27,302 nt of DNA from a virus (lineage: Duplodnaviria > Caudoviricetes). The position numbers and the translations under genes were made by a program. The notes under the pieces are model-generated. The model was not told where the DNA came from, ran no database searches, and was given only the letters and a program-made list of their open reading frames with translations. The stretch is taken from IMG/VR virus record IMGVR_UViG_3300030095_003968, positions 1-27,302 of that record; one strand, 5' to 3'. Shown one piece after another: positions 4,001 through 27,302 of this stretch (positions within the stretch are counted from its first letter, which is position 1; each line of letters starts with the position of its first letter).

Positions 4001-7000
4001 TTTCTAATACTTCTTTCTCAAGAGCTAACCTATTTTTGGCACCTAAGCTTACTTCTTGAGTTATAGGGTCTACAGGAAAATCTCCTTTTGAACCAAAGCG
4101 CTCTCTCCAATTAGCCATATCTTTTGCAGAAGAAAAGAAATTTGTATTTGTAGCATCAAACTCACCAAATCTGTCCATATGCTCTACAACAGAAGATACA
4201 TTATTAGAATTATTTACTCTTTTTCCAGCTATATAAGCAATATGACCATCTGCTGTTGTTATCTCAGTGTAAGCAGAAGTTGGTGGTTTATGGTCAGTAA
4301 CCTTATATTTAAAATTATTTATTTGAGGAGAATAAGAGAACACTTCTCCAAAATTATTTAAAAACGATTTTTGACCAAAGAATAAACTTATAGTTTGCAG
4401 TTCAGTAGCTGTAATATCACCAGTTAAAAAATTACCATTTTCAGCATTATTTTCATACCAACCCTTGGTATTTGCTCTGTGAATAGTTCTACCCTCTTTG
4501 CCTGCACTTACAATAAAATCATCTAAAAACTTTCTATTTATTTTAGCTATTTCTTCAGGCTTTAAATCTTTAATTTTGTTTAAATGTTTCTTTAGACTAT
4601 ACCCGTGAAAATTAATATCTTTCTTACCAATTTTGTTTAGTATAAACTCAACACCTTTTATGTCTGTTATTTCATTAGCAATAACGCCCCATTTATTTCC
4701 ATTAGTTTGATAATTAAATCTATCAGACTCTTTTATAAATGTTTTAAAAACTTTACGACTAACCATTGGAGATGTTTTTTCAACCATAAAGCTATTATCT
4801 TTAGGTTTAATAATTTTGCTCTTAACGTAGCTTAAAAGTTTTGGCGCCCATACCATTCTTTGGTCAGCATATCTACCAAAAGTATTAAAAAATGCGTTTT
4901 GCATAGCAGTTTCTGAAAACAAAGCTGGGTGAGCCGCCTCAGAAAATATTGACAACCCATCAATAAAACCCTGAAACTCTCCTTTAGGACCAAATCCGTT
5001 ACCACTTTTACCGTGATGAGTAAAATCATGTATAGCTCTAAATAAATCATTGTAAGTTAGCTGTTCACCTTTAGAAGTTTTTAAGCCACTTTGTTTTAGC
5101 ATAGGGAAAAGTTCTGTTATAACTGGATGAAATTCACCTTTAGCATTTAAAGTAGGCTCTTTTCCCATTTTTCCAGAAACCATAAATTTTTCAGGTAAGT
5201 TTTGAGCTTCGATAAATTCATTAACTGTTATATTCATATTCTCAACAGGACCAAAACCAGTTGTTGTTTGCCTTATATATAAATGACCTTTAGCCATATC
5301 TTTGTGCATTTCTGCAGAATTTTTATAAGGTTCGCCTTTACCTTTCCATAGCTCTACCTCAAAACCATTTTTCTTTAAAATTTCGTAAGCTTTAGGTAGT
5401 TCTTTAGTAAAAGCATTGTAAGATTCTACCATAGGAGCATAATCTGATTTATGCTCTAATTTATCAAAACTTTCTGCTAACTTCTGCTGAAGTTTTGGAA
5501 ACCAAGGTTCGTTTCCATTTATAGTAATATAACTGTCTTCTACAAATATGCCATCTTTTAAATTGTTAAGCTTTATTTCTTCTGACACCTCAAATAATTT
5601 TTGATTAGGTTTAGCAGTGTATATATTTCCAGCATCGACAGGTTGTTCAAATTTACCCCTACCTTTTCCAGGCTTAGGTGCTAAATCTTTACCAGGAAAC
5701 TTACTAGTGTAAGTTTTAAATTGATTATAATAATCAACCATTTTGCCGCCAGTAAATAAATCTTTATCCATTTTTTCAAGTTTTTCAAACCAATTAAAAA
5801 CATCTACTGCGTTATCTTCTTTTAAATTTCTCCACCCATATTGAGAGCCAGTATACACATATTCATCTTTTGCTCCAGCAACATCACCATATTCTGGCAT
5901 AATTTTTTTAGCAGTTAGCAACCCATTCAATGCTCCGTGACCACTTTTATCTAATTTTTTACCTGTGTATCTTTCTACCATAGAATTATTAACAGGCGTT
6001 TCTTTTAATACGCCTGGAACTTTATCACCTTTAACAGAAAAATAATTTATTTCACCCCCTTCAATTTTAATACCTGATGGTAATTCTCCTATATGGATTT
6101 TACCATCTTTAGACACCCTTATATACGCCCAATCTTTTACATTAGTTCTGTAGTCACTTTCTATTATGAGGTCACCATCTTTTTGGGTTGAACTTCTCAT
6201 TTGTTTATTAACCTCAATCTCACCAATTCTACCTTTATTAGCAGATTCTAATTCTATATTTTTTTGCTCTATTTTCTTTGTAACATTTTTAATGTTTATT
6301 TCATTTTTAAAAGTAGCACTTAAACCAGCAACACCAGTTTGACCCGTACCTTTTTGTTTTATTTCTGTAAACTTATTTAAATCTGAATTTAATGTTTCTA
6401 TTTCACTTTTTAAATCTTTAACTTGATTTTTATAATAACTTTCAGCATATTTTGGAGAAGGTTCTATAATGTCAAAAGTTACGTTGTCTAATTTTTTCCC
6501 TGTAATTGTCTCTATTTGTGGGACAGCGCTGTCTTGAAAACCATAACCTTGATATTCCATTATCTTAGCGTTTTGAAAAATTTCTTTAGCCATACCTGGC
6601 TCTTTTAGTTTTGCAGGCACATTAACATCTTTTACGAAAGCTGTTTCAAACTCTGCAAAGTTTTTATAATGTTTAGCATTAATTTTGTAAATATAGTTGT
6701 TTACATTTTCACTTATCAAAGCAGGTTGCTTTAACCTGTAATTAGGTTTAACACTTCTTGCAACATAATCCCAAGCAGTTTCTGAAGTAGGCAATGTATA
6801 AGTTTTTCCATCTCTACCTTTAAATGTAGAATATTTAACTTTTGTGTTAGCACCGTGCTTACCAATAGCACCTGACATTAAAAGACCTAATCCATTTACA
6901 GTTTGCTGGTAAGTATAATCATAAGAACTTAATTCTCCTTCATCATATTGTGTCCTTACATCTGACAAACCTTTAATTGATTGATAGGTCCCATGCGTTG

Positions 7001-8390
7001 CAAGGCCTAAAAAAACACCCATTGTTGCAACACCTGCGGCAACTTCTCCATATAATGTTGGCTCTGCAACAGCACCTGCCCAAAGTGGTGCTGTATATTT
7101 AAAAGCAGCAGTTAATAAAGGTTTTGTTCCTGCTAACACGCCCATAAAAGCTACTCCATCAGCACTTGTAAAATGTCTAAAAGTATCATACATACCGTTT
7201 ATTACAGCAGAAGGATGTGCTAAATTTTCACCAAACATTTTAACTAAAACTTCATCATCCATCATATATTCTTTATATCTATTTGCTTTAACTTTATCAC
7301 CACCAGCAAGTTCTAATAGCTGTTGATTAACATAGTCTCCATCAGGGCTATTCCAGTCAAAATCTTTAAACCTTTTGTTGTGTCTTCTTAAATTATCAAG
7401 CTGACTACTTACATCTTTTTCTATATCTTCGTAATCAAAAAAATCAGGGAATTGTAATTGAAAACCTCTAACAATTTCATCTATTACAGGTTTATCACTT
7501 ATTATAGCAGCCATTTCTGTGTTTGTTTTGTTTTCAATATCTATTACAGCGTCAATGTAAGCACTATCATCTAGCGTTAGCACAGCTTTAGCATAGTTCA
7601 TAAAAATCTTTTTACCATCTTCGTCGCTTACATTAGCATTATTAATAATATGTTTATTTACATCAGTAATTAAGTTAGTGTACAGCTCTTTAGTGTCAGC
7701 ATCAAAAACATCAGCCCAAACAGTTCCTTCTAACCAGCTTACATCTCCAAAGAGTCTTTGGTTAGGAATATTCATTGCTTTATCACCTATAAAAAACTTT
7801 TCATTTTTATCAAACTCTTCTGATAAAGCTTTAATCATTCCCTTGTCATTATTAATACTATACCCACGTTTTGATAAAGAGTTTTTAGCATTTTCTTTAA
7901 ATTCTAAAGCATAGTTTGAACTTGTGCTAACAAAAGTATTATCATTTTTTACATTAAGAAAAGAGTAGTCATTTTTAAAACCTTCCTTGTGCATCAAGTC
8001 TTGAATTAATCTGCCACCTCTTTTCATTCTATTGCCAATAATGTTTTCAACAGCCATAGTTATATGGTCTTGAGTTTCCTCATCAATTACATCATCACTT
8101 TTTTTAGCATGAATATATTTAACTAAATTTTGAGTATCTTTTAAAGCTGCGGCTGTTGCAGTATCTTCTTTCATTTTTTGTTGAGCAATAATAGAAAAAG
8201 GGTTAGCTTCTTCTGGCTCAATAACAGGGTCGACATTAACATTTTGCGTTTCGGGTGCGGGTGCTTGAGAAGATGAGACGTTAACATCGACCCCTGTAAT
8301 TTCTTCCTGAGGATTAGGGTTAGGTAAATCCAATTTCATGTTTGGATTTTTTATAGGATAACCAGATTCATCTAAATAGCTATCAGCCAT
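1059..8390 (-). CDS. Large internal virion / DNA-ejection protein (T7 gp16-like role), polyvalent, 2443 aa
   Basis: Last of three genes after the tail nozzle. Hydrophobic helices at about aa 410-510. The helical C-terminal region (EFRRNNLLS, PQRLQVLLD, ITFQEQLG, IFPFFNTSVN, GYQPNS, GFEPL) resembles the LPD38-like end of podophage internal proteins. Central cargo domains. Confidence 0.75.
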   Translation of the reverse strand: MADSYLDESGYPIKNPNMKLDLPNPNPQEEITGVDVNVSSSQAPAPETQNVNVDPVIEPEEANPFSIIAQQKMKEDTATAAALKDTQNLVKYIHAKKSDDVIDEETQDHITMAVENIIGNRMKRGGRLIQDLMHKEGFKNDYSFLNVKNDNTFVSTSSNYALEFKENAKNSLSKRGYSINNDKGMIKALSEEFDKNEKFFIGDKAMNIPNQRLFGDVSWLEGTVWADVFDADTKELYTNLITDVNKHIINNANVSDEDGKKIFMNYAKAVLTLDDSAYIDAVIDIENKTNTEMAAIISDKPVIDEIVRGFQLQFPDFFDYEDIEKDVSSQLDNLRRHNKRFKDFDWNSPDGDYVNQQLLELAGGDKVKANRYKEYMMDDEVLVKMFGENLAHPSAVINGMYDTFRHFTSADGVAFMGVLAGTKPLLTAAFKYTAPLWAGAVAEPTLYGEVAAGVATMGVFLGLATHGTYQSIKGLSDVRTQYDEGELSSYDYTYQQTVNGLGLLMSGAIGKHGANTKVKYSTFKGRDGKTYTLPTSETAWDYVARSVKPNYRLKQPALISENVNNYIYKINAKHYKNFAEFETAFVKDVNVPAKLKEPGMAKEIFQNAKIMEYQGYGFQDSAVPQIETITGKKLDNVTFDIIEPSPKYAESYYKNQVKDLKSEIETLNSDLNKFTEIKQKGTGQTGVAGLSATFKNEINIKNVTKKIEQKNIELESANKGRIGEIEVNKQMRSSTQKDGDLIIESDYRTNVKDWAYIRVSKDGKIHIGELPSGIKIEGGEINYFSVKGDKVPGVLKETPVNNSMVERYTGKKLDKSGHGALNGLLTAKKIMPEYGDVAGAKDEYVYTGSQYGWRNLKEDNAVDVFNWFEKLEKMDKDLFTGGKMVDYYNQFKTYTSKFPGKDLAPKPGKGRGKFEQPVDAGNIYTAKPNQKLFEVSEEIKLNNLKDGIFVEDSYITINGNEPWFPKLQQKLAESFDKLEHKSDYAPMVESYNAFTKELPKAYEILKKNGFEVELWKGKGEPYKNSAEMHKDMAKGHLYIRQTTTGFGPVENMNITVNEFIEAQNLPEKFMVSGKMGKEPTLNAKGEFHPVITELFPMLKQSGLKTSKGEQLTYNDLFRAIHDFTHHGKSGNGFGPKGEFQGFIDGLSIFSEAAHPALFSETAMQNAFFNTFGRYADQRMVWAPKLLSYVKSKIIKPKDNSFMVEKTSPMVSRKVFKTFIKESDRFNYQTNGNKWGVIANEITDIKGVEFILNKIGKKDINFHGYSLKKHLNKIKDLKPEEIAKINRKFLDDFIVSAGKEGRTIHRANTKGWYENNAENGNFLTGDITATELQTISLFFGQKSFLNNFGEVFSYSPQINNFKYKVTDHKPPTSAYTEITTADGHIAYIAGKRVNNSNNVSSVVEHMDRFGEFDATNTNFFSSAKDMANWRERFGSKGDFPVDPITQEVSLGAKNRLALEKEVLEKGHLTIDWANINDPINVKMMQKMYQNGKKVNFRYYDESTNKMLETEVKYVFDSKTNYSKRWDDFIDNAQVTWKNGDFNKIDAQAMKDGFNKKIITTKQMPIVEGDPVKPNKGLTVNHMGNINLSKLPRDSQGVLRTLLDEIGDKGYTEFVRKNIGHEQQVALALEPKNFENLINRILIDGHNNGAYLKNGDINTMVRTNPTDVIGAQFLLVEMINKYTANPSPALGNIIKKVAGANHVIRSNAGRTLNAMQIEINGGKVNIDNLTMLGKDELSAVYSIFSESEPATIMQKIVEFRRNNLLSAASSLTRSMAGNTFNLAIQMPNKLLSGAINEALTYFDHGIRGGKWDPLANRKASDALHFTEGFFSAKGMPNLLKDILFGKEAAIAESAIARNEGWYSKPRIGGIAGKIITTPQRLQVLLDAMVRKPSENGFLHEFAHRIAKSEKLSGKEYKSRVQELIANPNADMVRQAKTSAEYITFQEQLGTWGKMFNRIRTGKGTEGVQLIFPFFNTSVNLMKVGYNMTPLGLATPKYFKAAKEGFSKGNWGAFSDQTARVAVGTTVMWWMNQMMGDGQYNYEGDWAEEEKPVRELKEKLGYQPNSIWWENRDGEIESFSTVGFEPLASIMNISATWKKNEDENFQDRSAAVLKAWIKQFKENPFMQGTDDLLDLVEGLTTGGERGKDPVTYFNRLLLSSAIPNFIMQGGKIKDDIRYENPYREKWRVDELDNWYNSLLTEFRYIDNTTAVPKVNLFGEPVRIPDPVGATLALRNIKGEQNNSYNAVANEIIRLAPELGDMSFEIKNYKQFLQLTPKQAFLLEVAAGREFFKTLEDKLASEYVMEDGVVKVDENNYFVKSKSGQLTSSWSKLPDAAKIKTIKTIQSSVKKAQLFGIAPELFKKGEYGDYELIDPKEFVVYKEGRKDKGFEETKVIREELTKRYKESKKGELEIAKAEKYANQIIVLMRRGMDKGEAIDNILNKIKE

Positions 8391-10507: not shown

Positions 10508-13500
10508 CTATTGCTTACCACTGTAAAAGCCCTCAATGATAATGTCTTCTATTTGTAAATCTATTAAAGAACTGTCTGCGTTCTGAACCAATTCATATTG
10601 AAAAGTTTTACCTTCTCTTTTGATTGGTATTTTTCTATTTTTTAAAGTGTTATGAGCAGGCAATAAAATTTCACCCACTTGATTACCGTCTGTGTAGACT
10701 TTTAATTTTATATTTGCGCCAAATTTATAGGTTATATACATATATTCTATGTATTTTCTTTGCGAAGGGTCGTCAAAAGTATGATTTTTTGATTTTATTT
10801 GGAAAGGTGACTCCTTTAAATGCACAACACTATCTGATGTAACTTCATTCCCGTTGCTATCATTAAATGTACTAGGAACTCTTGAAACTTTTATACCATA
10901 TACAGTTTGACTTAGATACTCTAAAAACCCAGTATCACCAATAAAAAAACTCCCAATTTTTGATAAATTGTTTGGCGATTCAGAATCGTCACAATTTTCT
11001 TCAATCCAAGAATTTCTATCAAAACTGTAAATGTATCTTAAGGCACTTTGAGCATTTTGTTCCGAAGTATCAGGAATAAATACAATATTATTTTTCTTAG
11101 GTGAATAACTTAAAATAGGATTTTTGAAAGTTAACTTTTGATAGGTATCTAATATAGGTAAAGAAAGTTGTTGACCTTCAGGTAACAAAAAAATACCAGA
11201 TTCATTTGCTACACACACACCTTTAGACGTGCTAACGACAGCACTTTTCCATTTAGTACCCATAGATGTTAGCACACCTACTTCATTAAAAGATTTAGAT
11301 GGGTCACACAAAAAAGTGTCGGATTCTTTAACTACAAATAAAACTCCATTAAAACCCTCTAAAGCAACTATAGGGTCAGCGTCAATTTTTCCTATTGTCC
11401 TTGAATTTGCCAAAGTAAATTCGTCAAATTTGTAAGGTGAAGTCCATAAAATTTTACCTCTTTCATTTACAGTCTGTTCATTTTCGTCCATAACATCTAC
11501 ATTACCAATAACTGATATACCAGAAATTTGAGTAGAACAAGACCATCTAACGGGAGCAAATCTATCTTTGGATGCTCTGTCAAGTCTATCCCTGTAATTT
11601 ATACCTTTAAATCCGTAATGAGGTATTCTTCTTGTTCCAATAACATCTTGACGAGGCAAAAAACCTTCTATAAAATATCCATAAGTACATGCGCTAGGAT
11701 TATTGAGATTAACATTACCAAAACTACCATCAGTATCAATAGGGACTACATAGCCTTGGCCAATACTAACGTCAGTAACACCAAAACCGTGCATAGGTGG
11801 ATATGAAAGAGCAAGACCTGCATCGTTAGCTAAATATTTTGTTCCGCTCATAAAAGTTTTAGCAGGAGGGAAAACGCCACTAGAAGGAATTGGCCTAAAG
11901 CTAGTATCTACAGTTATCATGTCATCAGTATAATCACCATTACTTATATCAGCTATTTTATACATGCCATTAACAGAAAGAGAAGTGTCTGCTGTAGCTA
12001 CAAAAATAAAATCTCCTTCTTTATAACCAAACCTGCCAAGCCTTACATTATTTATTCCTATTTTTATTGTATTAGCTGTACTGTCAAAAGTTAAATTTCC
12101 TAAAGTTTCTCCAGTAGATTTAGTATTTAAAGCAACACCTCCAAAAAAAGCTGTATCTTCTGTTGTACTTTGCCACCTATCACTAACGGTATTATTTAAA
12201 GAACCATTTGTAAGGTCTCTTTTGTTAACACTACCATAGTACGTAGTATGGATTAAATCAGTAGTATAATTCATTTGTATTTGAAACTGTTTACCTACCG
12301 CAGATGTTAATATTATTGTATCATTAGGACAAGCTACTGGGTTTCTTACGGTAATTGTTGGGTCTGTACCTGTTGGGTAACCCGTGGTGTTATTATCTTG
12401 GGGGCTAAGCACTACTCCCCATCTATTACATAAAGACCAATTATAGGTACTAGTAGAACCACCATCCCCAAGTCCAGTACCTTGATTACCTATTGTAAAT
12501 AAAGGTGAACTAAATGGAGTTTCAATCCAAGCACCAGTATTACCAGAAAAAGCTTGATTTTCTTCATAAAAAGATGAAGTGTCAGCTTGACTTTGATGAG
12601 TAAAAGCATTAGTTTCGTCATTTTGTAAAGTTTCAAACTCTCCAACATCCGTATAAGCTTGGTACGATTTTTTCATTAAACTAACTGGTGAATCTACTAA
12701 GCATGTATTTATATCATAAGAATTAACAAGATAAAAATCAGTTTCACCTTCAGGATTCCAATATAAATTAATTCCTGTAATCCTACTGTTCCAGTCTTCA
12801 GAAGAATTAGAACCATTATCTTCCATTTTTACATCTACAGCCTGAGTAGCTGTAGGACTGCCATCTAAAGTTCCAGAACCATAAAAAGAGGCTTCGTCAA
12901 AAAAACTTACAAATCTTTCCGCAGTTAAACCTTCTCCTGCATTCTGTACCGAACCAGGAACTACTCCTGGAAATACGCCTGTTTTTCCGCTACATGTTCC
13001 TGTATTTATTATATCTAATATTTGTTGACAAGTGAAAGTTCTGCCTCCACCATTGTCACACTTTAATTTTATTTCAATCTCACTTCCATCTCTTATCATT
13101 GCAATTTCAAAAGTGTTAGCACCCATTGTTCCAACATCAAAACCTGTAGTAGTATGCTCTATAGTAAATCTTATTAATTTACCTTTTAAACCTAATCTCT
13201 TATTTGTTTTTAACTTTAAATAATGAACATCTCCACTAGCATTTAAAATTGCGCTTATATTACCAGTGTCTTCCCTAGATGTGCAAGATTTTGCCCCTGT
13301 ATTTACAACTATAGATACAGCCCTAGCTGGTTGCGTCTCTTGAACAAAAAATATATCATCACCAGTAGAGGTTCCCGCATCCCCTGTATGTTCTTGAGGT
13401 GAAGTTCCTAAAACTCCCCTCATGACCGTAACAACATTATTACTAAAACCTCCAGCAAAACCATTTTGCCCCCTAATAACATACATTTTTTCAGAATTTA

Positions 13501-14620
13501 TACGTATGACTTTACCAATCAAACTTTGTAAATCGTCTCTGGTATCAAATTCTAAATAATTTTGAACTTTATTTACATCTTCATGTATTTTTTTAGAAAA
13601 CATTGTGTCTTCTTGTTCTAAAACTATATTAGGGGGTTTATAACAAGGAAACCCTGAAATACCTAAGTTACCAAACTCATCCCTAGAAAGCTCAGATTCG
13701 CTTGCATAATCATAAACATAGGTAACAGCATATCTGTCTTTTTCGCTAAATGTTGTTCTTGAATCAGTATCTGGCCACACCATAGCGTCTAAACAAAAAT
13801 TACCCCACCAATCCCTATCAGTATCTTCCCATACATCTCCTGTAAATCTTCTAGTATTTAACCAAGGGTCCTGCACAAACACCCCAACATCTCCTACATT
13901 TTTACAAATATTATCTCTATCTAAATAGCTAGTAAGTTTTACATTTGCAGGAGGTTTTATATGCTGGTCGTAAATTTCCCATTTGTTAATTTCTTCCGCC
14001 TGATTAGGTTTTGATGGACTTGGAGCCATCATATATAATTCATTACCATCTGTATTACTTGTTGCATCTTTTTGACCAAAAACATTTCTTTTTATATGGC
14101 CAAACCATTTAGAAATATTATTTGTATTCATATTTGAGTCAGATATTCTTACAGAGCCATTCCCAACAAAAAAATCAATATCAATATCTTCAGTAGGGTC
14201 TATCACCCAGCCAATATCATCAGACCACCATTCCCAACTATCTGCAAGCAAAACGTCACTATCTTTATCAGTATCAGATGCCTCATGTATTAATATACCA
14301 ATATCAGCAGTATCTTTTACCTGTACAAACATTAAATAATATGTTCTACCTTTGTTTTCTGGGACGTTTGGGTTTTTAGTAATTGTCCATGAACTTTTAT
14401 ATAAAATTACATATTCTTTTCCGTTAGTAGGAATTTCTGCATTAATAAAGTTTTCTGTAATTCTTATATCTTTTGCAGATTTTTTTATTTTTCCAGGGAA
14501 AAAATTAGATAAGTTTTTGTATATTAAAAATACATCAGATGGAATATCAAGCTCACCTAAATAAGTCGCAAAACCTTTAGCAAAATTAGCTACAGCTTTT
14601 CTAAAAGGTTGTCTAGGCAT
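10508..14620 (-). CDS. Tail nozzle / tail tubular protein B-like (packaged-DNA stabilisation), 1370 aa with inserted domains
   Basis: Follows the adaptor genes. Propeller-like C-terminal half (KILWTSPYKFDEF, PIVALEGFNGVLFVVKE) and terminal FQIKSKNHTFDDPSQRKYI...REGKTFQYEL...IEDIIIEG pattern typical of this class. Confidence 0.7.
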   Translation of the reverse strand: MPRQPFRKAVANFAKGFATYLGELDIPSDVFLIYKNLSNFFPGKIKKSAKDIRITENFINAEIPTNGKEYVILYKSSWTITKNPNVPENKGRTYYLMFVQVKDTADIGILIHEASDTDKDSDVLLADSWEWWSDDIGWVIDPTEDIDIDFFVGNGSVRISDSNMNTNNISKWFGHIKRNVFGQKDATSNTDGNELYMMAPSPSKPNQAEEINKWEIYDQHIKPPANVKLTSYLDRDNICKNVGDVGVFVQDPWLNTRRFTGDVWEDTDRDWWGNFCLDAMVWPDTDSRTTFSEKDRYAVTYVYDYASESELSRDEFGNLGISGFPCYKPPNIVLEQEDTMFSKKIHEDVNKVQNYLEFDTRDDLQSLIGKVIRINSEKMYVIRGQNGFAGGFSNNVVTVMRGVLGTSPQEHTGDAGTSTGDDIFFVQETQPARAVSIVVNTGAKSCTSREDTGNISAILNASGDVHYLKLKTNKRLGLKGKLIRFTIEHTTTGFDVGTMGANTFEIAMIRDGSEIEIKLKCDNGGGRTFTCQQILDIINTGTCSGKTGVFPGVVPGSVQNAGEGLTAERFVSFFDEASFYGSGTLDGSPTATQAVDVKMEDNGSNSSEDWNSRITGINLYWNPEGETDFYLVNSYDINTCLVDSPVSLMKKSYQAYTDVGEFETLQNDETNAFTHQSQADTSSFYEENQAFSGNTGAWIETPFSSPLFTIGNQGTGLGDGGSTSTYNWSLCNRWGVVLSPQDNNTTGYPTGTDPTITVRNPVACPNDTIILTSAVGKQFQIQMNYTTDLIHTTYYGSVNKRDLTNGSLNNTVSDRWQSTTEDTAFFGGVALNTKSTGETLGNLTFDSTANTIKIGINNVRLGRFGYKEGDFIFVATADTSLSVNGMYKIADISNGDYTDDMITVDTSFRPIPSSGVFPPAKTFMSGTKYLANDAGLALSYPPMHGFGVTDVSIGQGYVVPIDTDGSFGNVNLNNPSACTYGYFIEGFLPRQDVIGTRRIPHYGFKGINYRDRLDRASKDRFAPVRWSCSTQISGISVIGNVDVMDENEQTVNERGKILWTSPYKFDEFTLANSRTIGKIDADPIVALEGFNGVLFVVKESDTFLCDPSKSFNEVGVLTSMGTKWKSAVVSTSKGVCVANESGIFLLPEGQQLSLPILDTYQKLTFKNPILSYSPKKNNIVFIPDTSEQNAQSALRYIYSFDRNSWIEENCDDSESPNNLSKIGSFFIGDTGFLEYLSQTVYGIKVSRVPSTFNDSNGNEVTSDSVVHLKESPFQIKSKNHTFDDPSQRKYIEYMYITYKFGANIKLKVYTDGNQVGEILLPAHNTLKNRKIPIKREGKTFQYELVQNADSSLIDLQIEDIIIEGFYSGKQ

Positions 14621-14968
14621 TTAAAAATCCCTGTGTGTGCTTTGAATAATTTCTTCTCTTATAATTTTACTACCCATGCTAATCTCTTCTTTCATTTTTT
14701 CCCATTCTTCTTTATATAATGGGTATAATTGTGGTGCTAATCTTTTTACTAATTGCAAAACAGCATAGGCTACTAAAGCTTCTTGATGTTCTTCTAATAT
14801 AATTTTATTAGGTTCGTCATCTCCCTTTTCCATATCTGGAACTTCAGCAATATAATGTATTCTTATTTTTTTAATTTCTGTAGGTGTAGGATATATACCA
14901 ATAACATCATTACCCCATTGATAATAAAATTTACCTGTATTAAATAAATTATAATCTTTTACACTCAT
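14621..14968 (-). CDS. C-terminal half of a head-tail adaptor (tail tubular A-like) protein
   Basis: YYQWGNDVIGIYPTP...IRIHY...EEHQEALVAYA matches the adaptor C-terminal motif pattern. Confidence 0.7.
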   Translation of the reverse strand: MSVKDYNLFNTGKFYYQWGNDVIGIYPTPTEIKKIRIHYIAEVPDMEKGDDEPNKIILEEHQEALVAYAVLQLVKRLAPQLYPLYKEEWEKMKEEISMGSKIIREEIIQSTHRDF

Positions 14969-15249
14969 TATGTTACATCCAATTCTATTATATCATTATA
15001 GTCAACAACATCTATTTTGTCACCATCGTAATCAACTCTTAATATGTTGACTAAATCTGAAGGTAAATTATATCTTTCTTGGTCTTTAACAGAATTTGCT
15101 GAAGCGCTGACTCTATTTAATAAACCCATTTTATTTATTTTTTTTTGCGCTCTATTTATATAAAAATCAATTTCTTGGTCACTTACAACCTCTCTATCAA
15201 TATTACCTAAACCCATTCTTACTAATTCTCTTAATTCTTTTAATTTCAT
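14968..15249 (-). CDS. N-terminal half of a head-tail adaptor protein
   Basis: MKLKELRELVR...SDQEIDFYINRAQ...ERYNLPSDLVNILRV matches the adaptor N-terminal motif pattern. Confidence 0.7.
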   Translation of the reverse strand: MKLKELRELVRMGLGNIDREVVSDQEIDFYINRAQKKINKMGLLNRVSASANSVKDQERYNLPSDLVNILRVDYDGDKIDVVDYNDIIELDVT

Positions 15250-16242
15250 TTAAATCCCTTTAGATTTTAACTCGTTCAATGCAGGTTTAGACTCGTGTGT
15301 TTTTTTATCTTCAGGCATATATTTTAAATTTAAAGCTTGTAAATCTAGCAAATATTGTTGGAAATATATTTGAGACTCCTCTTCTTTTCCAATAGATATT
15401 AAGCTTTTATAACAAGCATAATCAACAACAAGCTTTTCTAAAGATTCTGGTAAATCACATTCAGTAGTACCCACAGTTTGAGGTTTTTTAATATATATTA
15501 TTTCTGCATCTACAAGAACATTTACAGAAATAGGTAATTGTATTTTTCCATTAAAAATTGCATACCATTTATTACCCTCTTCAGGATTTTTTGTTTTACT
15601 ATAAAAAGGATGCCTATCATCTTTTATATCCATTAATAAATCATAAGGAATTTTTTCAGCTCTTGTAATTCTATCCCCTGCAATTCTAGTCATATATCTT
15701 AAAACTAAAGGTCTTAAAAAGTTAGTAGGAGCAGTTAACTCAGTAGATGATGAACTTGTTTCAATCGTAGCATCTTCTACCATTTCTGTAGCCTCCGCCA
15801 TTAATAACTGGTCATTAGATTTGTTTGTAACATCTAATTGACCTTCTTTTATCCATTCCATTATATCTGAAAAAACTGGAGGTTCCATCTCAGTATCTGA
15901 TATTGTTACTACACAACCAGCAGTATTGGAAGACTCTACAGTTCTAGCACCAATCAATTCTACAGTAGCACCACTAGGAGTGTTTGCTGTAATACCTTGA
16001 GCTACACCAAAACCTGAATCTATAGATGCTTTAAAAGCAGTAGCCATAGCATTAGCTGTTGTAGAAGCTCTACTTACATTAAATTCTGCTGCTGCTGGAG
16101 TTGCTCTTAATATTAATTTAATACCATTAATAGTAATTGTATCAGCATCGACAGTATTGGTTGTAAATGTTAAACTGTGACTTCCTTGAGAAAGACCTAA
16201 TTTTCTTTTTACTTGAGTAGCTAAATTGTTTAATGTTGCCAT
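15250..16242 (-). CDS. Head-tail adaptor / ring protein with an inserted ~100-aa domain (330 aa)
   Basis: First gene after the capsid; DIMEWIKEGQ, LTAPTNFLR, WYAIFNGKIQL, YIKKP, LPESLEKLVVDYA. Confidence 0.7.
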   Translation of the reverse strand: MATLNNLATQVKRKLGLSQGSHSLTFTTNTVDADTITINGIKLILRATPAAAEFNVSRASTTANAMATAFKASIDSGFGVAQGITANTPSGATVELIGARTVESSNTAGCVVTISDTEMEPPVFSDIMEWIKEGQLDVTNKSNDQLLMAEATEMVEDATIETSSSSTELTAPTNFLRPLVLRYMTRIAGDRITRAEKIPYDLLMDIKDDRHPFYSKTKNPEEGNKWYAIFNGKIQLPISVNVLVDAEIIYIKKPQTVGTTECDLPESLEKLVVDYACYKSLISIGKEEESQIYFQQYLLDLQALNLKYMPEDKKTHESKPALNELKSKGI

Positions 16243-21706: not shown

Positions 21707-23101
21707 TTATATAGTTTTCCAATTATCTTTCTTAATTTTTTTCTGTAGCCACTGGGGCGGTATTCTTTTAGCTTGCGGTCTAACCGATGTTTCAATGTGA
21801 TTTATCATGTATCTAAGCGCATCCATTGAGTGGTCATTCTTTTTCATAGGTTTTTCTGATATATTCTTTTTATCACCACCATAATCCTCCCATCTATAAT
21901 CTGTAACTTCTTCTATAAACGGGTCCATACATGCTCTATCAAAAACAAAGAACTTAGGTCTTTGAGTTGCATCGTCTAATTGCATATACTTAGCAACTCT
22001 GTCTATACCAGCAGCGACATCATTGTCAGCTTTTTCAAAATATATACCGTATTCTTCATATTGAGCGCCAATAGTTACATCAGTTGACATACCACCTCTG
22101 ACATGCCATATACTTGGGTCAGCAAGCCATCTAGTAATTTCCTGCGTACCTACTTTACGCCATATCTCCTCAGCATGAAAATCTATCCATTCATCTGCTT
22201 TATAGTGCATATCATATAAATATATATCATTAGTATCACTTACTGCAAAGAAAAGCGCAGCAGTCGGATTTCTGTGTCCATGGTCCATAACAACATATCT
22301 GTGCCACCATACAGGTATCTCAAAAGGTTTAATTACATGTGTATTTTCATCAAAATCACTCCACACCAATCCTTCAAAGTTATCCCAAGAGCCAAATACA
22401 TACCTACGTACCCACCTTTTAGGTTGCTCTAAACGGTCAACAATATAATCCCATGGCAAATAAGGATTAGCACAATGTAGTAATGTCACATCCTTTTGAC
22501 ATGTTGGCGCAGGCACATCCTCTTTCCATATAGTACCTTCTACAATCTTATAACCTTTACGACCACCACCTTTAATCCAACGTCTCCATACCCAGCTATG
22601 TCCATTTGGGTTAGCTGTAGCGAAGCTTCTCCTTGAGGCATTACGTCTACGCATCTGACCTATACAAGCAATCCATACATTCTCTGTTATCTCTTCAATC
22701 TGGTCAACAAAGACAGCACCAATGTTCATAGATTTCACTTTCTGCATAGCTTCACGTGATTCATCTAATTGCATATAAAAAATCTTACTATTGTTTAAAA
22801 ACTCTATTGTTTGACCTTGTCTGTCGTGACGCTTTATTAACTTAGGGTCTATAATATCAAATAAAGATACTAATGTTGATTTTTTTAGAGAACCTAGAGT
22901 TTTACGCCCTAATAGTATTACGTTGTTAGGAAATGACACAGCCTCAATAATAACTTGTACCATAAGCCAGTCAGTTTTTCCCCAACCAAGAGAGCCAGCA
23001 GCAAGAACATGCTTTTCCCTACTATCTATAAGTTCTTTTTGGTTAGGCAGAGCATCTGACGGGTCTCCGTTAGCGTCTTTAAATCCTATATATATATCCA
23101 T
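21707..23101 (-). CDS. terL: Terminase large subunit (464 aa)
   Basis: Q motif (PNQ), Walker A GSLGWGKT, Walker B VFVDQIEE, coupling motif TANP, RNase H-like nuclease motifs VMDHG, LADPS, NDHSMDALRY. Confidence 0.95.
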   Translation of the reverse strand: MDIYIGFKDANGDPSDALPNQKELIDSREKHVLAAGSLGWGKTDWLMVQVIIEAVSFPNNVILLGRKTLGSLKKSTLVSLFDIIDPKLIKRHDRQGQTIEFLNNSKIFYMQLDESREAMQKVKSMNIGAVFVDQIEEITENVWIACIGQMRRRNASRRSFATANPNGHSWVWRRWIKGGGRKGYKIVEGTIWKEDVPAPTCQKDVTLLHCANPYLPWDYIVDRLEQPKRWVRRYVFGSWDNFEGLVWSDFDENTHVIKPFEIPVWWHRYVVMDHGHRNPTAALFFAVSDTNDIYLYDMHYKADEWIDFHAEEIWRKVGTQEITRWLADPSIWHVRGGMSTDVTIGAQYEEYGIYFEKADNDVAAGIDRVAKYMQLDDATQRPKFFVFDRACMDPFIEEVTDYRWEDYGGDKKNISEKPMKKNDHSMDALRYMINHIETSVRPQAKRIPPQWLQKKIKKDNWKTI

Positions 23102-23159
23102 AAAGTCCCTTTTGGTAAATCAAAAAAATTTTAGAAGGCCTTTTGGCAATCTAACTTTA

Positions 23160-23273
23160 TTATCGCTGTATAAATTCGTACTCGCCTTGGCAGGGTGGTC
23201 TGCCCCCCCGTTTATCGCTGTATTTTTATTATATTATTGATTAATATTTCACCCATGTTAGCACTGTTAGCAC
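23160..23273. repeat. Repeat cluster in the terS-terL gap
   Basis: TTATCGCTGTAT direct repeat (23160-23171, 23212-23223) around a GGCAG/CTGCC stem (23189-23204) and a C7 run (23203-23209); tandem TGTTAGCAC x2 (23256-23273). Confidence 0.75.
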
Positions 23274-23277
23274 CGTA

Positions 23278-23814
23278 TTACTTCACCTGTGTGGCTATCT
23301 CTGTAAAATTATTCTTTTTATTGTTGTTGACGGTATTTTTCTTCTCATCGTGGCGGGTATAGCCAACAACGCCATCACCGAAGGCAATGTTGACCTGTAC
23401 ATTAGCACCAACATTCTTACCTCTGTCAGCGTAGCGGTCTCTGTCTAGTGACTTCAATCTAAATAGCCTTTCTACCATGTTCTTAGGTTCCAAGGCGTTG
23501 GTCTCTGATACCTCTTCTAATTTGATTAACTCAACTCTATCTAATATCTTACGTACTTTGTTATAAGCTGTATTGAATTTCTTGTCTACTTTGAGAGCAA
23601 CAGCTACATCAACAGCGTTGAAGCTTAGTGAAGCGGTGCTAACGCTTCCAGAAGCCAGCCAGTCAGTGAGAAAGTCAGCCTTCCATGGTTCAAGGTTGGC
23701 GGTGATAGCATTCAGGTCCTTTTTGGCGCTGATTTCATTGCTACGCAATATAGATTTGGTAGCTAGTTTTTCACTTGTTTCAGGTTTATCTTTATTTTTC
23801 TTCATAATTAGCAT
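23278..23814 (-). CDS. terS: Terminase small subunit (putative); the start may be the Met at 23803-23805
   Basis: Upstream of terL; HTH-like KADFLTDWLASGSVSTAS, DKKFNTAY, LFRLKSLDRDRYADR, VQVNIAF. Confidence 0.7.
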   Translation of the reverse strand: MLIMKKNKDKPETSEKLATKSILRSNEISAKKDLNAITANLEPWKADFLTDWLASGSVSTASLSFNAVDVAVALKVDKKFNTAYNKVRKILDRVELIKLEEVSETNALEPKNMVERLFRLKSLDRDRYADRGKNVGANVQVNIAFGDGVVGYTRHDEKKNTVNNNKKNNFTEIATQVK

Positions 23815-23820
23815 CCAGTT

Positions 23821-23832
23821 TAATGGTTAACA
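23821..23832 (-). promoter_or_regulatory. Candidate late promoter/operator TGTTAACCATTA (copy 3)
   Basis: Immediately upstream of terS, at the head of the minus-strand module. Confidence 0.55.
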
Positions 23833-24025
23833 CAATATAAACCAAGGTATAACTTCAGGACGGAGAATTACAATTAAATCATCATATCTAGGTTAAATAG
23901 TTACATGAATATGATAAATATGATAATAATATTAGGATATATAGTATAGATAGTATTAACTTACTCCGTAAGTCGATGGCACAATGCTACCGACGCTAAA
24001 CAAACAAAACGTCGACGGTGACGTT

Positions 24026-24040
24026 AAACAATACAAGGAG
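24026..24040 (+). promoter_or_regulatory. A-rich leader plus SD AAACAATACAAGGAG
   Basis: Identical 15-mer at 26455-26469; both copies precede plus-strand start codons. Confidence 0.7.
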
Positions 24041-24048
24041 CAATACAA

Positions 24049-25383
24049 ATGAAAGTAACAGAAAAAAGAAGAAAAATTAACAAACTAATCAACGAGGGCA
24101 AAGTCATGGAACATGGCGCTGTCTCATCGAGGGCCAAAGTCATCAGAAACCTTAATTCTGACCAGTGTGATTCGATTTTATTGAGAATGGAAATACGTTA
24201 CAGTGACTATCAGGACATACTAGAGAAGGAAGCTATAGCTACAATACCAGTGTCAGGCGGTATTGCTGGTGGTGACGGTGATAAGTCTCAACCTGAGCCT
24301 AGTTCTGACGGTGAGAGCGGAGATTCAAAGGCTGAGAAGCCAGTTCAACCTGATGCCATTGAGAAGCTGGCTGATGAGATACTGGGTGACATGAAAGCTG
24401 ACGAGGATGCTCAGCTTAGCGGTGCTAACTTTGTAACTGACAAAGGTATGCTTTCAGTTACAGACACAGCACAAAAATTAGGCATGAATCAAATGAAAGA
24501 GATTATCGTGGGTCATGCTAAGGTGCTAGATTCAGTAATTTCAAAAGTATCTAAAGCTAGTCCTGATGCTGGTCCATCAACCATGGAGGTCAAGGTTGGC
24601 ACGATATCAAAGCCTAAGACTGTAGAGGGTGTGCATCACCATCCAAAGTTTGCTGAGATAGTTGAGAAATTACAGCTGAACGCTGACCAGTGTGTCTACC
24701 TGTGTGGTGGTGCTGGTGCTGGTAAAACTACGCTAGCTAAACAGGTTAGTGAAGCTATGGAACTAGACTTTGGTTTCTTATCATGTACCGAAGGTATGTC
24801 TGAAGCGCACTTGCTGGGTCGTATGCTGTTTGATGGTCAGTATGTAGAGTCTGAATTTGTCAGGTTGTACGAGAATGGTGGTGTGTTCTTGCTGGATGAG
24901 ATGGACGCCATGGATTCTAATGTTGCTGTGGTTATAAACTCAGCGCTTGCTAACGGTCACGTTTCAGTACCAAACAGAAAAGATAACCCAACAGCGCTAC
25001 GTCATGAAAATTTCTATGTTATTGGTGCTGGTAATACTTGGGGTACAGGTCAGGGTTCAAATGTGTACAGTGGTAGAAATAAGCTTGATACAGCTACGCT
25101 GGATAGGTTTTGGGGTATAGAGTTTGACTATGACAAAAAGCTTGAGAAAATGCTATCTGTTGACTCTAAAATGTACAAGGCGCTGAACCTACTACGTAAA
25201 AATGTTAAATCTTACAGCCTGAACAGGGTTGTTGGAACACGTAGATTTGTAGATGCTGGACGTATTCATGCTAACGGTAAAGATGTGAAATACTTGCTTG
25301 ACCATGTGACCACTGGCTGGACTACTGAAGAAATCAACAAAGTTGGTTTAGATGATATCATGATGACAGTGGAGGGTAAGTAA
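24049..25383 (+). CDS. AAA+ ATPase, MoxR/CobS-like (AAA_5), with long N-terminal extension (444 aa)
   Basis: Walker A GGAGAGKT, Walker B FLLDEMD, sensor I AGNT, arginine finger LDTATLDRF, sensor II GTR. Confidence 0.92.
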   Translation: MKVTEKRRKINKLINEGKVMEHGAVSSRAKVIRNLNSDQCDSILLRMEIRYSDYQDILEKEAIATIPVSGGIAGGDGDKSQPEPSSDGESGDSKAEKPVQPDAIEKLADEILGDMKADEDAQLSGANFVTDKGMLSVTDTAQKLGMNQMKEIIVGHAKVLDSVISKVSKASPDAGPSTMEVKVGTISKPKTVEGVHHHPKFAEIVEKLQLNADQCVYLCGGAGAGKTTLAKQVSEAMELDFGFLSCTEGMSEAHLLGRMLFDGQYVESEFVRLYENGGVFLLDEMDAMDSNVAVVINSALANGHVSVPNRKDNPTALRHENFYVIGAGNTWGTGQGSNVYSGRNKLDTATLDRFWGIEFDYDKKLEKMLSVDSKMYKALNLLRKNVKSYSLNRVVGTRRFVDAGRIHANGKDVKYLLDHVTTGWTTEEINKVGLDDIMMTVEGK

Positions 25384-25384
25384 C

Positions 25385-26455
25385 ATGAGATTACAGGGAC
25401 TAGCATGGGAGCCAGCACAAGCTGGTGAATATAGAACATATGATGGCAAGAAAGTCTACATTGCCAACGGTACAGACGTCAGGTATGTTAAGACTATGAA
25501 CCGTAGTAATGCCACAAGCGATATGCCTAGACTGTTGCGCAAATTTGAGTTCAACAGTCAGCACGAGATGGTTGAATTTGTACGTGCTAATGATGGCCAT
25601 GTTGATGATGGTTCTAACTGTCGTGATAAAATACATCGTGAGTGGAACGACCACGCTAGAGCCAACGGTGCTAATGAGTATGAGAAGCAAATGTACTATT
25701 ATTATGGTGATGGTGACAGCTGGGCGTTTGGTAAGGCGGAAGCTAGCAATAGCATTGAGAAATGTGACAAGCTACTGACCGACGGTAAAACTACTCCTTC
25801 AATACGTAGAATCATGAATAAAACTATTAAACAGGTCAAGCTAGCTGGTGTTGATAAAATGCTGAATGAGCGCTTTGAATCTGTGAAGCGTAAGCGTGTA
25901 TGGTCTGAGGATGGTTCTGAACTAGATATTGATAGAGTTATGTCAGGTGACCCACAGCACTGGGTTAGCACTAAGCGTAACGGTAAGAAGAGAGTTATCA
26001 GGCTAGGCGTCAATGTTAGCATGTCAGGTGGCAATGGTGCTAGCACCTTTGCCAAGAATGTGGGCCTAGCTTACGTAGTTTGCGAAGCGCTTGAGAATCT
26101 AGGTTATGGTGTTGAGATTGTAGCTGTGGATGCTTGTTACTATAGCGGTGGCTATAACAAGTTAAGCAATAAACAAGATGAGACAGCCACTATTATTCCG
26201 CTTAAAAGGTCTGATGAGCCTGTCGATATTAACAGGGTTGGTTCTGTTGGATTTTCAGCCATGCTAAGATATTACAATTTTATTTGTGCTAGCATGATTT
26301 ATAGACAGGCTGGTGGTACTTGCTGGGAGACTAGTGATGAGATGAAAGCCTTCATGAATGTTGACTTACTGGTTGAGACAGCGTTTAGCACAGGCGATGA
26401 AAAAGAACAGGCGACTAGAGTAGTTAGAGCCATAGATAAAATCATTAATAAATAA
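25385..26455 (+). CDS. vWA/CobT-like partner of the AAA+ ATPase (356 aa)
   Basis: 1 nt after the ATPase stop; DGSELDIDRV, MIDAS-like GVNVSMS, EALENLGYGVEI, IPLK. Confidence 0.7.
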   Translation: MRLQGLAWEPAQAGEYRTYDGKKVYIANGTDVRYVKTMNRSNATSDMPRLLRKFEFNSQHEMVEFVRANDGHVDDGSNCRDKIHREWNDHARANGANEYEKQMYYYYGDGDSWAFGKAEASNSIEKCDKLLTDGKTTPSIRRIMNKTIKQVKLAGVDKMLNERFESVKRKRVWSEDGSELDIDRVMSGDPQHWVSTKRNGKKRVIRLGVNVSMSGGNGASTFAKNVGLAYVVCEALENLGYGVEIVAVDACYYSGGYNKLSNKQDETATIIPLKRSDEPVDINRVGSVGFSAMLRYYNFICASMIYRQAGGTCWETSDEMKAFMNVDLLVETAFSTGDEKEQATRVVRAIDKIINK

Positions 26456-26475
26456 AACAATACAAGGAGAACAAG

Positions 26476-26826
26476 ATGAATAAAATAAAAAATCAGGACT
26501 GGATAAAGCTTAATAAGAAAAAAACTTGTTTAGTTCAATTACATGATAAAAATCAAAAGCCAACACTGGAGGAGTTACAGGCCATGGTTGGCGGTCCCGT
26601 ACAAGTTGCTATGGATGACCAAGATTTAAGGGTTCAAATAATAGTTGATGAGGAGGGTAAATTAAAGGGTAAACCAATGAATGAAGAAGCCACTGAATAT
26701 TGGTTTAGATTATTACAGCTTGATACCAATCCTGATGAATATTATACATATGAAGAGTTTGTTAGCAAGGTAGACTGGATAGCTGGCGACGCCATTGTAT
26801 TGCATGGTGGTGCTAGGCTAGACTAA
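26476..26826 (+). CDS. DUF3846-like protein (116 aa)
   Basis: PTLEELQAMVGG, IVDEEGKLKGKPMN, IAGDAIV. Confidence 0.8.
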   Translation: MNKIKNQDWIKLNKKKTCLVQLHDKNQKPTLEELQAMVGGPVQVAMDDQDLRVQIIVDEEGKLKGKPMNEEATEYWFRLLQLDTNPDEYYTYEEFVSKVDWIAGDAIVLHGGARLD

Positions 26827-26901
26827 GTTGAAATACTGAACGCAGTGATGCGTGCAGTATATAGCGTAGGCTGGGAACCTTGCTACTGATGAGACAACCC
26901 A
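26827..26901 (+). ncRNA. Type II hammerhead ribozyme with pseudoknot; predicted cleavage after A26861
   Basis: Core GAAA 26830-26833, UA 26860-26861 and CUGAUGA 26886-26892. Stem III ATACTG/CAGTAT plus ACGCA/TGCGT with GUGA loop. Stem I TAGCG-t-AGG/CCT-TGCTA. Stem II GTT/GAC. Loop I TGGG is complementary to 3' CCCA. Confidence 0.9.
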
Positions 26902-26929
26902 TATAATCGTAAAATAAAGGAAAATAGCG

Positions 26930-27302
26930 ATGAAAAACAAAAAGACAGGTAAGAAGTCAATCAGCGTAGTTGTTGATGTAAAAAATAGTAAAATAGTTAA
27001 AAAATCATTCAATGTAGCTGAGGGTTCTATTATTGATTTACCAATCAGTATGGCTAGCTTAACGCTCAGGGGTGTTATTTTACAGCACAGGGCAACCATA
27101 GACAGCTTGAAACATCTATCTAGTATTATGGAAGAAGAAAATGATAAAGATAGTATGTCAATGTCAGCAATTAGGGCGCTTAAACATATAATCAGAACAA
27201 AGAAACATCGTGATTCGCTTGAGTTGTTGGGTGATATATTTAAAACACATCCTGAACTTGAGGGTTACGCTATAGCATTTAATGACAGTATTACACAAAT
27301 AA
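26930..27302 (+). CDS. Partial hypothetical protein running off the window edge
   Basis: Not in the ORF track. AAGGA SD, ATG at 26930, open to the window end (MKNKKTGKKSISVVVDVKNSKIVKKSFNVAEG...). Confidence 0.75.
   Translation, partial: MKNKKTGKKSISVVVDVKNSKIVKKSFNVAEGSIIDLPISMASLTLRGVILQHRATIDSLKHLSSIMEEENDKDSMSMSAIRALKHIIRTKKHRDSLELLGDIFKTHPELEGYAIAFNDSITQI

Follow-up and report, generated by a model that had tools for sequence, protein, structure and literature searches.

What is the 75-nucleotide element that lies between a DUF3846 gene and the next gene in the plus-strand operon of a tailed phage, and what would it do to the message that runs through it? Its letters suggest a self-cleaving RNA. 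Natural type II hammerhead ribozymes with a short stem II, a pseudoknot between loop I and the 3' tail, and locations in prophages were described by Perreault et al. 2011 (PMC3088659). Those authors reported that tandem prophage hammerheads cleave, that 14 of 18 consensus examples are active and, by mutation and compensation, that another type II example depends on this pseudoknot to cleave fast. They also proposed that phage transcripts are processed in this way into shorter mRNAs. In Desulfovibrio cells, cleavage was shown for three type II hammerheads located near phage-like genes (PMC8782182). A 2019 review calls the role of hammerheads in bacteria largely elusive (PMC6765202).

The locus

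The window is the whole stretch of viral DNA that we analysed, 27,302 nucleotides. The two sequencing runs that match it best are marine metagenomes.

Source virus record: 27.3 kb, estimated 68% complete
Minus strand: terminase, portal and capsid genes
24049..25383, plus strand: AAA ATPase gene, 444 aa, at the head of the operon (Pfam AAA_5, E 9.8e-16; phrog_249, E 3.3e-52)
25385..26455, plus strand: DUF7192 gene, 356 aa (Pfam DUF7192, E 1.4e-16)
26476..26826, plus strand: DUF3846 gene, 116 aa (Pfam DUF3846, E 9.4e-9)
26917..27302, plus strand: downstream gene including the SD-like AAGGA at 26917-26921, ATG at 26930, cut by the window end

The DUF7192 protein had no match in an NCBIfam search. 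The product of the downstream gene is 233 aa long in a near-identical strain (L181, 99.5% identical), and searches of Pfam, PHROG and NCBIfam gave it no family.

The DUF3846 gene stops with TAA at 26824-26826 and the element abuts that stop (0 nt). Lying on the sense strand, it takes up the whole gap between the stop and the next ribosome-binding site, with 15 nt from its 3' end to the SD; the placement in the initial annotation, from the first base after the stop to about 15 nt before the SD, is thus confirmed by the coordinates. A terminator-like site was looked for between the DUF3846 gene and the downstream gene, and none was found.

Several features elsewhere in the window deserve mention. 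A hairpin at 24008-24025, terminator-like on the minus strand, lies upstream of the ribosome-binding site of the AAA gene (region 24008-24048). The AAA and DUF3846 genes have leaders with a near-identical A-rich stretch in common, which ends in the SD (26455-26475 for DUF3846). On the minus strand, three neighbouring ORFs at 14621-16242 match the SU10_adaptor family; those of 93 and 115 aa cover consecutive parts of the profile (1-73 and 95-156 of 194) and may be a split gene. Two very large ORFs of the minus-strand virion region (2443 aa at 1059-8390 and 1370 aa at 10508-14620) have no Pfam match.

Architecture of the element

By the type II core criteria in the methods of PMC3088659, the 75-nt element at 26827-26901 lacks none of the hammerhead core nucleotides, and they stand in type II order (C3 U4 G5 A6 N7 G8 A9, G12 A13 A14, A15.1-U16.1 and H17).

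26827..26829, plus strand: 5' strand of stem II, GUU, positions 11.3-11.1
26830..26833, plus strand: core G12-A13-A14-A15.1 (GAAA)
26833..26860, plus strand: stem III, with 6 bp (26833-26838/26855-26860), an A26839·G26854 mismatch, 5 bp (26840-26844/26849-26853) and a GUGA (GNRA) loop
26859..26862, plus strand: cleavage triplet AUA at 26859-26861, with the cut predicted from core geometry at 26861/26862
26862..26885, plus strand: stem I, with 5 bp, a bulged U26867, 3 bp and a 7-nt loop at 26871-26877
26886..26895, plus strand: core C3-A9, CUGAUGA (26886-26892), and the 3' strand of stem II, GAC (26893-26895)
26872..26901, plus strand: predicted pseudoknot of loop I UGGG (26872-26875) with tail CCCA (26898-26901)

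Stems I and III both end in loops and stem II is open, which is the type II permutation. A complete type II core at these positions had been claimed before, and a direct check of the sequence bore it out coordinate by coordinate. The pairing proposed for the stems also stood, and two features had gone unstated. The strands of stem I are unequal (9 nt and 8 nt), so that the bulged U26867 is required. Moreover, the core-proximal pair of stem II (10.1-11.1) is a G26893·U26829 wobble rather than the usual G-C. The other core-adjacent pairs are present (1.1-2.1 is U-A and 15.1-16.1 is A-U).

Beyond the element, the leader at 26906-26931 has a conserved AUCGU and could form a weak hairpin that covers the start codon and has the SD in its loop, in all six sequences that we compared (the window and its five orthologs). 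This hairpin has 5-7 bp and -2.5 to -3.4 kcal/mol, and in L183 and L184 the same bases can pair with the core instead. It is too weak, and the lineages are too few, for us to call it a switch.

Chance, artefact and a false negative

Is the motif a chance match or an assembly artefact? The Rfam result would favour such a reading: we obtained no match at the gathering score, none at E<=10 in 23000-27302 and none with RF02276 alone, and the element lies below the gathering threshold of RF02276 Hammerhead_II (37 bits). Against it, both strands of the window were scanned with a type II descriptor, which matched once; with the observed stem lengths it matched in none of 200 dinucleotide shuffles (mean 0.0; the shuffle mean at the loosest setting was 0.115). 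The letters of the ribozyme are identical in contigs from all four DNA runs (two studies, one run possibly being the source sample) and are therefore not an assembly error. A fifth strain contig, of depth 4.5, has U at 26861 and may itself be in error. Conservation at five of five orthologous loci, set out below, refutes chance and artefact alike, and we give them practically no credence.

The Rfam miss is a false negative that reflects a limit of the model, because RF02276 fails equally on nine of 20 other structured type II hammerhead loci used as a benchmark (11 were matched). The orthologs L121 and L182, which have the canonical GUC triplet, are among those missed, as is the ortholog L183. 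We built a second covariance model, R1, from 60 non-orthologous phage hammerheads. In the window, R1 gave a match at 26823-26905 that scored 34.4 bits (E 1.1e-7 by rough calibration; the next match had E 0.55), and it matched the ortholog loci with 34-36 bits in five of five. The initial annotation had named the lack of a covariance-model hit as a refuting result; the check came out negative with Rfam and positive with R1. R1 leans on the hammerhead core, because its sequences were selected by pattern. The 60 had moreover been chosen from 66 with a pseudoknot of at least 4 bp, so that counts of pseudoknot pairs within them are partly circular; for the pseudoknot we rely instead on the family-wide test with shuffled tails given below.

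Further ribozymes had been thought worth seeking elsewhere in the genome and in relatives. Searches with the descriptor, Rfam and R1 found no second ribozyme on either strand of the window (68% complete), and one copy was found in a 30-kb relative (G001, 76% complete) and in each of the 8-kb loci L182-L184. In a blastn search against GenBank phages the ribozyme had only three short chance matches. Its 16-nt stem I motif matched 62 viral stretches, one of which is a ribozyme: the L121 contig again.

One hammerhead motif in three lineages

We collected orthologous loci in two ways. Searching with alignments of both upstream proteins identified a single related viral contig (L120/L121). Metagenomes scanned with the C-terminus of DUF3846 offered 64 candidate stretches, and these yielded four loci (L181-L184). 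Viral contigs searched with DUF3846 or the downstream protein singly yielded no locus. All five orthologous loci have the same gene order, with a hammerhead no more than 5 nt from the DUF3846 stop. They form three lineages: the window with L181, L121 with L182, and L183 with L184. The stop is 0 nt from the element in the window, overlaps stem II in L121/L182 and lies 5 nt away in L183/L184.

The pairing is preserved throughout. In six of six sequences, 20 of 20 pair positions of stems I-III and the pseudoknot are still paired, and CUGAUGA and GAC are invariant. Pairs I.1 and I.2 of stem I have changed on both sides among the orthologs; II.1, I.4, I.5 and PK.4 have changed on one side, and none is broken. 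From the sequences compared, firm two-sided changes are limited to I.1 and I.2, with only three lineages sampled. Four pseudoknot pairs are possible in all six sequences; within the clade a single one-sided change, from U-A to U·G, has occurred there, and none on both sides. A fifth pair is possible in two of the six only. In L121/L182 stem III has one pair fewer, and in L183/L184 a different 7-bp UNCG hairpin takes its place, with the junction intact; because it is shortened or swapped between lineages, its columns are aligned by structure rather than by descent. From stem I to the pseudoknot, the window shares 82-85% identity with the four distant orthologs; the corresponding values are 56-71% at the end of the DUF3846 gene and 48-59% at the start of the next gene. 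The assignment to type II hammerheads with a loop I/3'-tail pseudoknot, made in the initial annotation, is supported by these five loci and by the independent model R1.

Parts of the core vary. The 10.1-11.1 pair is G-C in four of the five orthologs, and the three lineages combine G-C with GUC (L121/L182), G·U with AUA (the window) and GAUAA with GUU (L183/L184). The last carries a U inserted in GAAA, the U13a variant (L183:4156-4225 and L184:4168-4237).

Conservation also bears on whether the stretch acts mainly as DNA, as an internal sigma-70 promoter for the downstream genes (TTGCTA-16-TATAAT, 26880-26907). This site has 10 of 12 consensus matches and is joint best in 23700-27302; the 13 sites found there are at chance level, however (10.0 +/- 3.2 in shuffles), and by eye the four more distant orthologs lack the TATAAT hexamer. 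Since a promoter would leave the conserved core and the pair-preserving changes unexplained, we regard it as highly improbable.

We rejected a general link between DUF3846 and ribozymes: among 61 loci (L120-L180) only the contig L120/L121 has a ribozyme after DUF3846. In one other of these, L173, a ribozyme lies 1.2 kb upstream.

In other marine contigs, from runs X3, X8 and X9, the half comprising stem I, core and pseudoknot (26864-26902) is shared, and stem III and the downstream leader are different. This module therefore also occurs in other gene contexts.

A wider phage family

How common are such elements? From 6 of 64 parts scanned, we estimate that about 1,300 IMG/VR stretches match a pattern for the form with G-C at 10.1-11.1. 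The scan returned 130 loci. Of these, 109 contain structured type II hammerheads, 137 distinct ones in all, with two or more in 20 of the 109. The triplet is GUC in 119 of the 137 and AUA in three. A pseudoknot of at least 5 bp is possible in 55 of 88 non-redundant members, compared with a mean of 15.5 and a maximum of 23 when the tails were shuffled. The G·U form is rarer, with 12 distinct structured members in 13 of 119 loci; three of the 12 have AUA, in unrelated phages. The U13a variant is found as 11 distinct examples in eight of 435 loci (L183, L184, L379, L393, L417, L418, L424 and L435), and L379, L424 and L435 hold two such hammerheads each.

Two further observations come from this survey. 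Some phage contigs (L286-L288, L253 and L285) hold three to six or more type II hammerheads, 300-900 nt apart, between small genes. An unrelated phage hammerhead at L248:497-554 has the same layout of a bulged-U stem I and a 2-nt linker, and Rfam misses it too.

Family members tend to begin at a stop codon. The start lies between -3 and +8 nt from an upstream stop (of an ORF of at least 50 codons) in 107 of 132 members and in 95 of 118 non-redundant ones, against 149 of 3060 random positions (4.9%) and 39 of 893 AGTY sites (4.4%); UAG overlaps stem II in 41 members. We did not find this adjacency discussed in the excerpts of PMC3088659, PMC6765202, PMC8782182 and PMC3138052, and supplements or subscription journals may cover it.

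Could the adjacency mean that translation gates the ribozyme? The stem II strand and GAAA would lie under a ribosome that terminates at the DUF3846 stop, cutting would thus depend on translation of the upstream gene, and weakened cores would keep a deliberate mixture of cut and uncut message. The family-wide counts fit such a scheme, as do the distances of 0 nt, overlap and 5 nt in the three lineages. So does the departure of two of the three lineages from the canonical core (G·U with AUA, and GAUAA with GUU), and in the window a competing helix takes in the stop codon. This helix is not the same across orthologs, however, and stop adjacency is no proof of regulation, because our pattern fixed the A before stem II that UAA and UAG supply and because compact phage genomes predict the same asymmetry: only the downstream side needs room for a ribosome-binding site (family median 20 nt to the downstream start codon). 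On balance we think translation-gated, partial cleavage unlikely.

Predicted folding and cleavage

Returning to a hammerhead that would cleave between the genes, we conclude that the conserved type II motif likely folds on the plus-strand polycistronic mRNA, and that the predicted cut at 26861/26862 would split AAA-DUF7192-DUF3846 from the downstream message. By core and architecture the element belongs to the class of Perreault 2011, and it would work in the same way.

The 2'-OH of A26861 would attack its phosphate in an internal transesterification, the established chemistry of hammerheads. The upstream piece would end in a 2',3'-cyclic phosphate and retain stem III as a 3' hairpin. On the downstream piece, a 5'-OH would head a 68-nt leader whose first features are stem I and the pseudoknot. 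The latter would keep stems I and II in parallel and compensate for the weak 3-bp stem II. The cut may then uncouple the decay and translation of the two halves of the message.

Folding predictions speak against robust activity. ViennaRNA gives the hammerhead fold -18.5 and the minimum-energy fold -22.2 kcal/mol (3.7 apart, the pseudoknot not being counted), using a method that ignores both the pseudoknot and the hammerhead core. The competing helix of the minimum-energy fold pairs 26823-26830 with 26862-26869, stop codon included, and differs between orthologs. Mean pair probabilities are 0.96 for stem III (which is in the minimum-energy fold), 0.09 for stem I and 0.0 for stem II.

Is the window copy then a decaying ribozyme, one with an active ancestor that has lost nearly all activity in this lineage and persists solely as a structured leader or stabiliser? 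The more stable misfold is consistent with decay, as are the rarity of the G·U form and of AUA in the family and the strain contig with U at 26861 (at its depth, possibly an error). Yet the core nucleotides are all intact; the changes in this lineage leave the pairs in place, those at I.1 and I.2 being two-sided; unrelated phages also combine G·U with AUA; and activity has been reported even with U·U at 10.1-11.1 (Perreault 2011, PMC3088659). We therefore judge decay very unlikely.

An active ribozyme need not be a fast one. Because the window has an AUA triplet and a G·U pair, its hammerhead would probably cleave more slowly, or less completely, than canonical GUC members. In engineered hammerheads, according to a review, cutting at AUA can lag behind GUC or GUA by orders of magnitude (PMC3138052). 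The GAUAA core of two orthologs may likewise make for slow cleavage. We found no paper on G·U at 10.1-11.1.

The effect of the new 5'-OH end on the downstream message would depend on the host and could go either way, stabilising it or doing the opposite. A 5'-OH end may protect a message in some hosts, and we found no paper on 5'-OH stabilisation. Cleavage by glmS leads to degradation (PMC6765202).

Discussion

The element adds one example to a class that has been known since 2011 and that many phage contigs contain. It shares with that class (PMC3088659; Rfam RF02276) the permutation, the core, the short stem II, a predicted pseudoknot of at least 4 bp, an intergenic position in a phage operon and a proposed role in mRNA processing. 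The window copy differs in its score below the RF02276 threshold, its long stem III with an A·G mismatch, its bulged-U stem I, its 2-nt linker to the pseudoknot, its G·U at 10.1-11.1, its AUA triplet and its occurrence, in the available sequence, as a single copy rather than a cluster. The U13a variant of Perreault 2011 (PMC3088659) has the same U that we find in L183/L184 and that is absent from the window copy.

Like the window element, HHphage of haloviruses HF1 and HF2 (PMC3088659) and the Desulfovibrio vulgaris type II hammerheads (PMC8782182) are associated with phages and lie just upstream of a start codon or near phage-like genes. For both there is evidence of activity in vivo, with data on transcript ends. 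HHphage has a core insertion near C3 that the window element lacks. Clustered prophage hammerheads bracket single genes; the sequences searched here showed one copy each, and the window, 68% complete, ends 400 nt downstream. RNase III cuts the T7 early polycistronic mRNA between genes; it is a host protein enzyme and leaves a 5'-phosphate and a 3'-OH. The likeness to our element is the cut between phage genes, and with unrelated chemistry it is an analogy only.

That phage hammerheads process polycistronic mRNA, as the initial annotation supposed for this operon, is plausible, and it is a published hypothesis rather than a new one (PMC3088659 and PMC6765202). A bolder generalization would make phage type II hammerheads in general translation-gated switches, with the stop built into or set against stem II, and would make this locus a natural allelic series of three core tunings selected for partial cleavage. 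We consider this doubtful. If it were true, partial cleavage at the locus would set the ratio of upstream to downstream protein.

In vivo work is limited because the phage is uncultured. For the family, the benchmark of 20 loci shows that many phage members escape the Rfam type II model (nine of the 20). For the phage, the locus offers one ribozyme that keeps its place in the operon across three related lineages, and its natural core variants can be compared in one assay.
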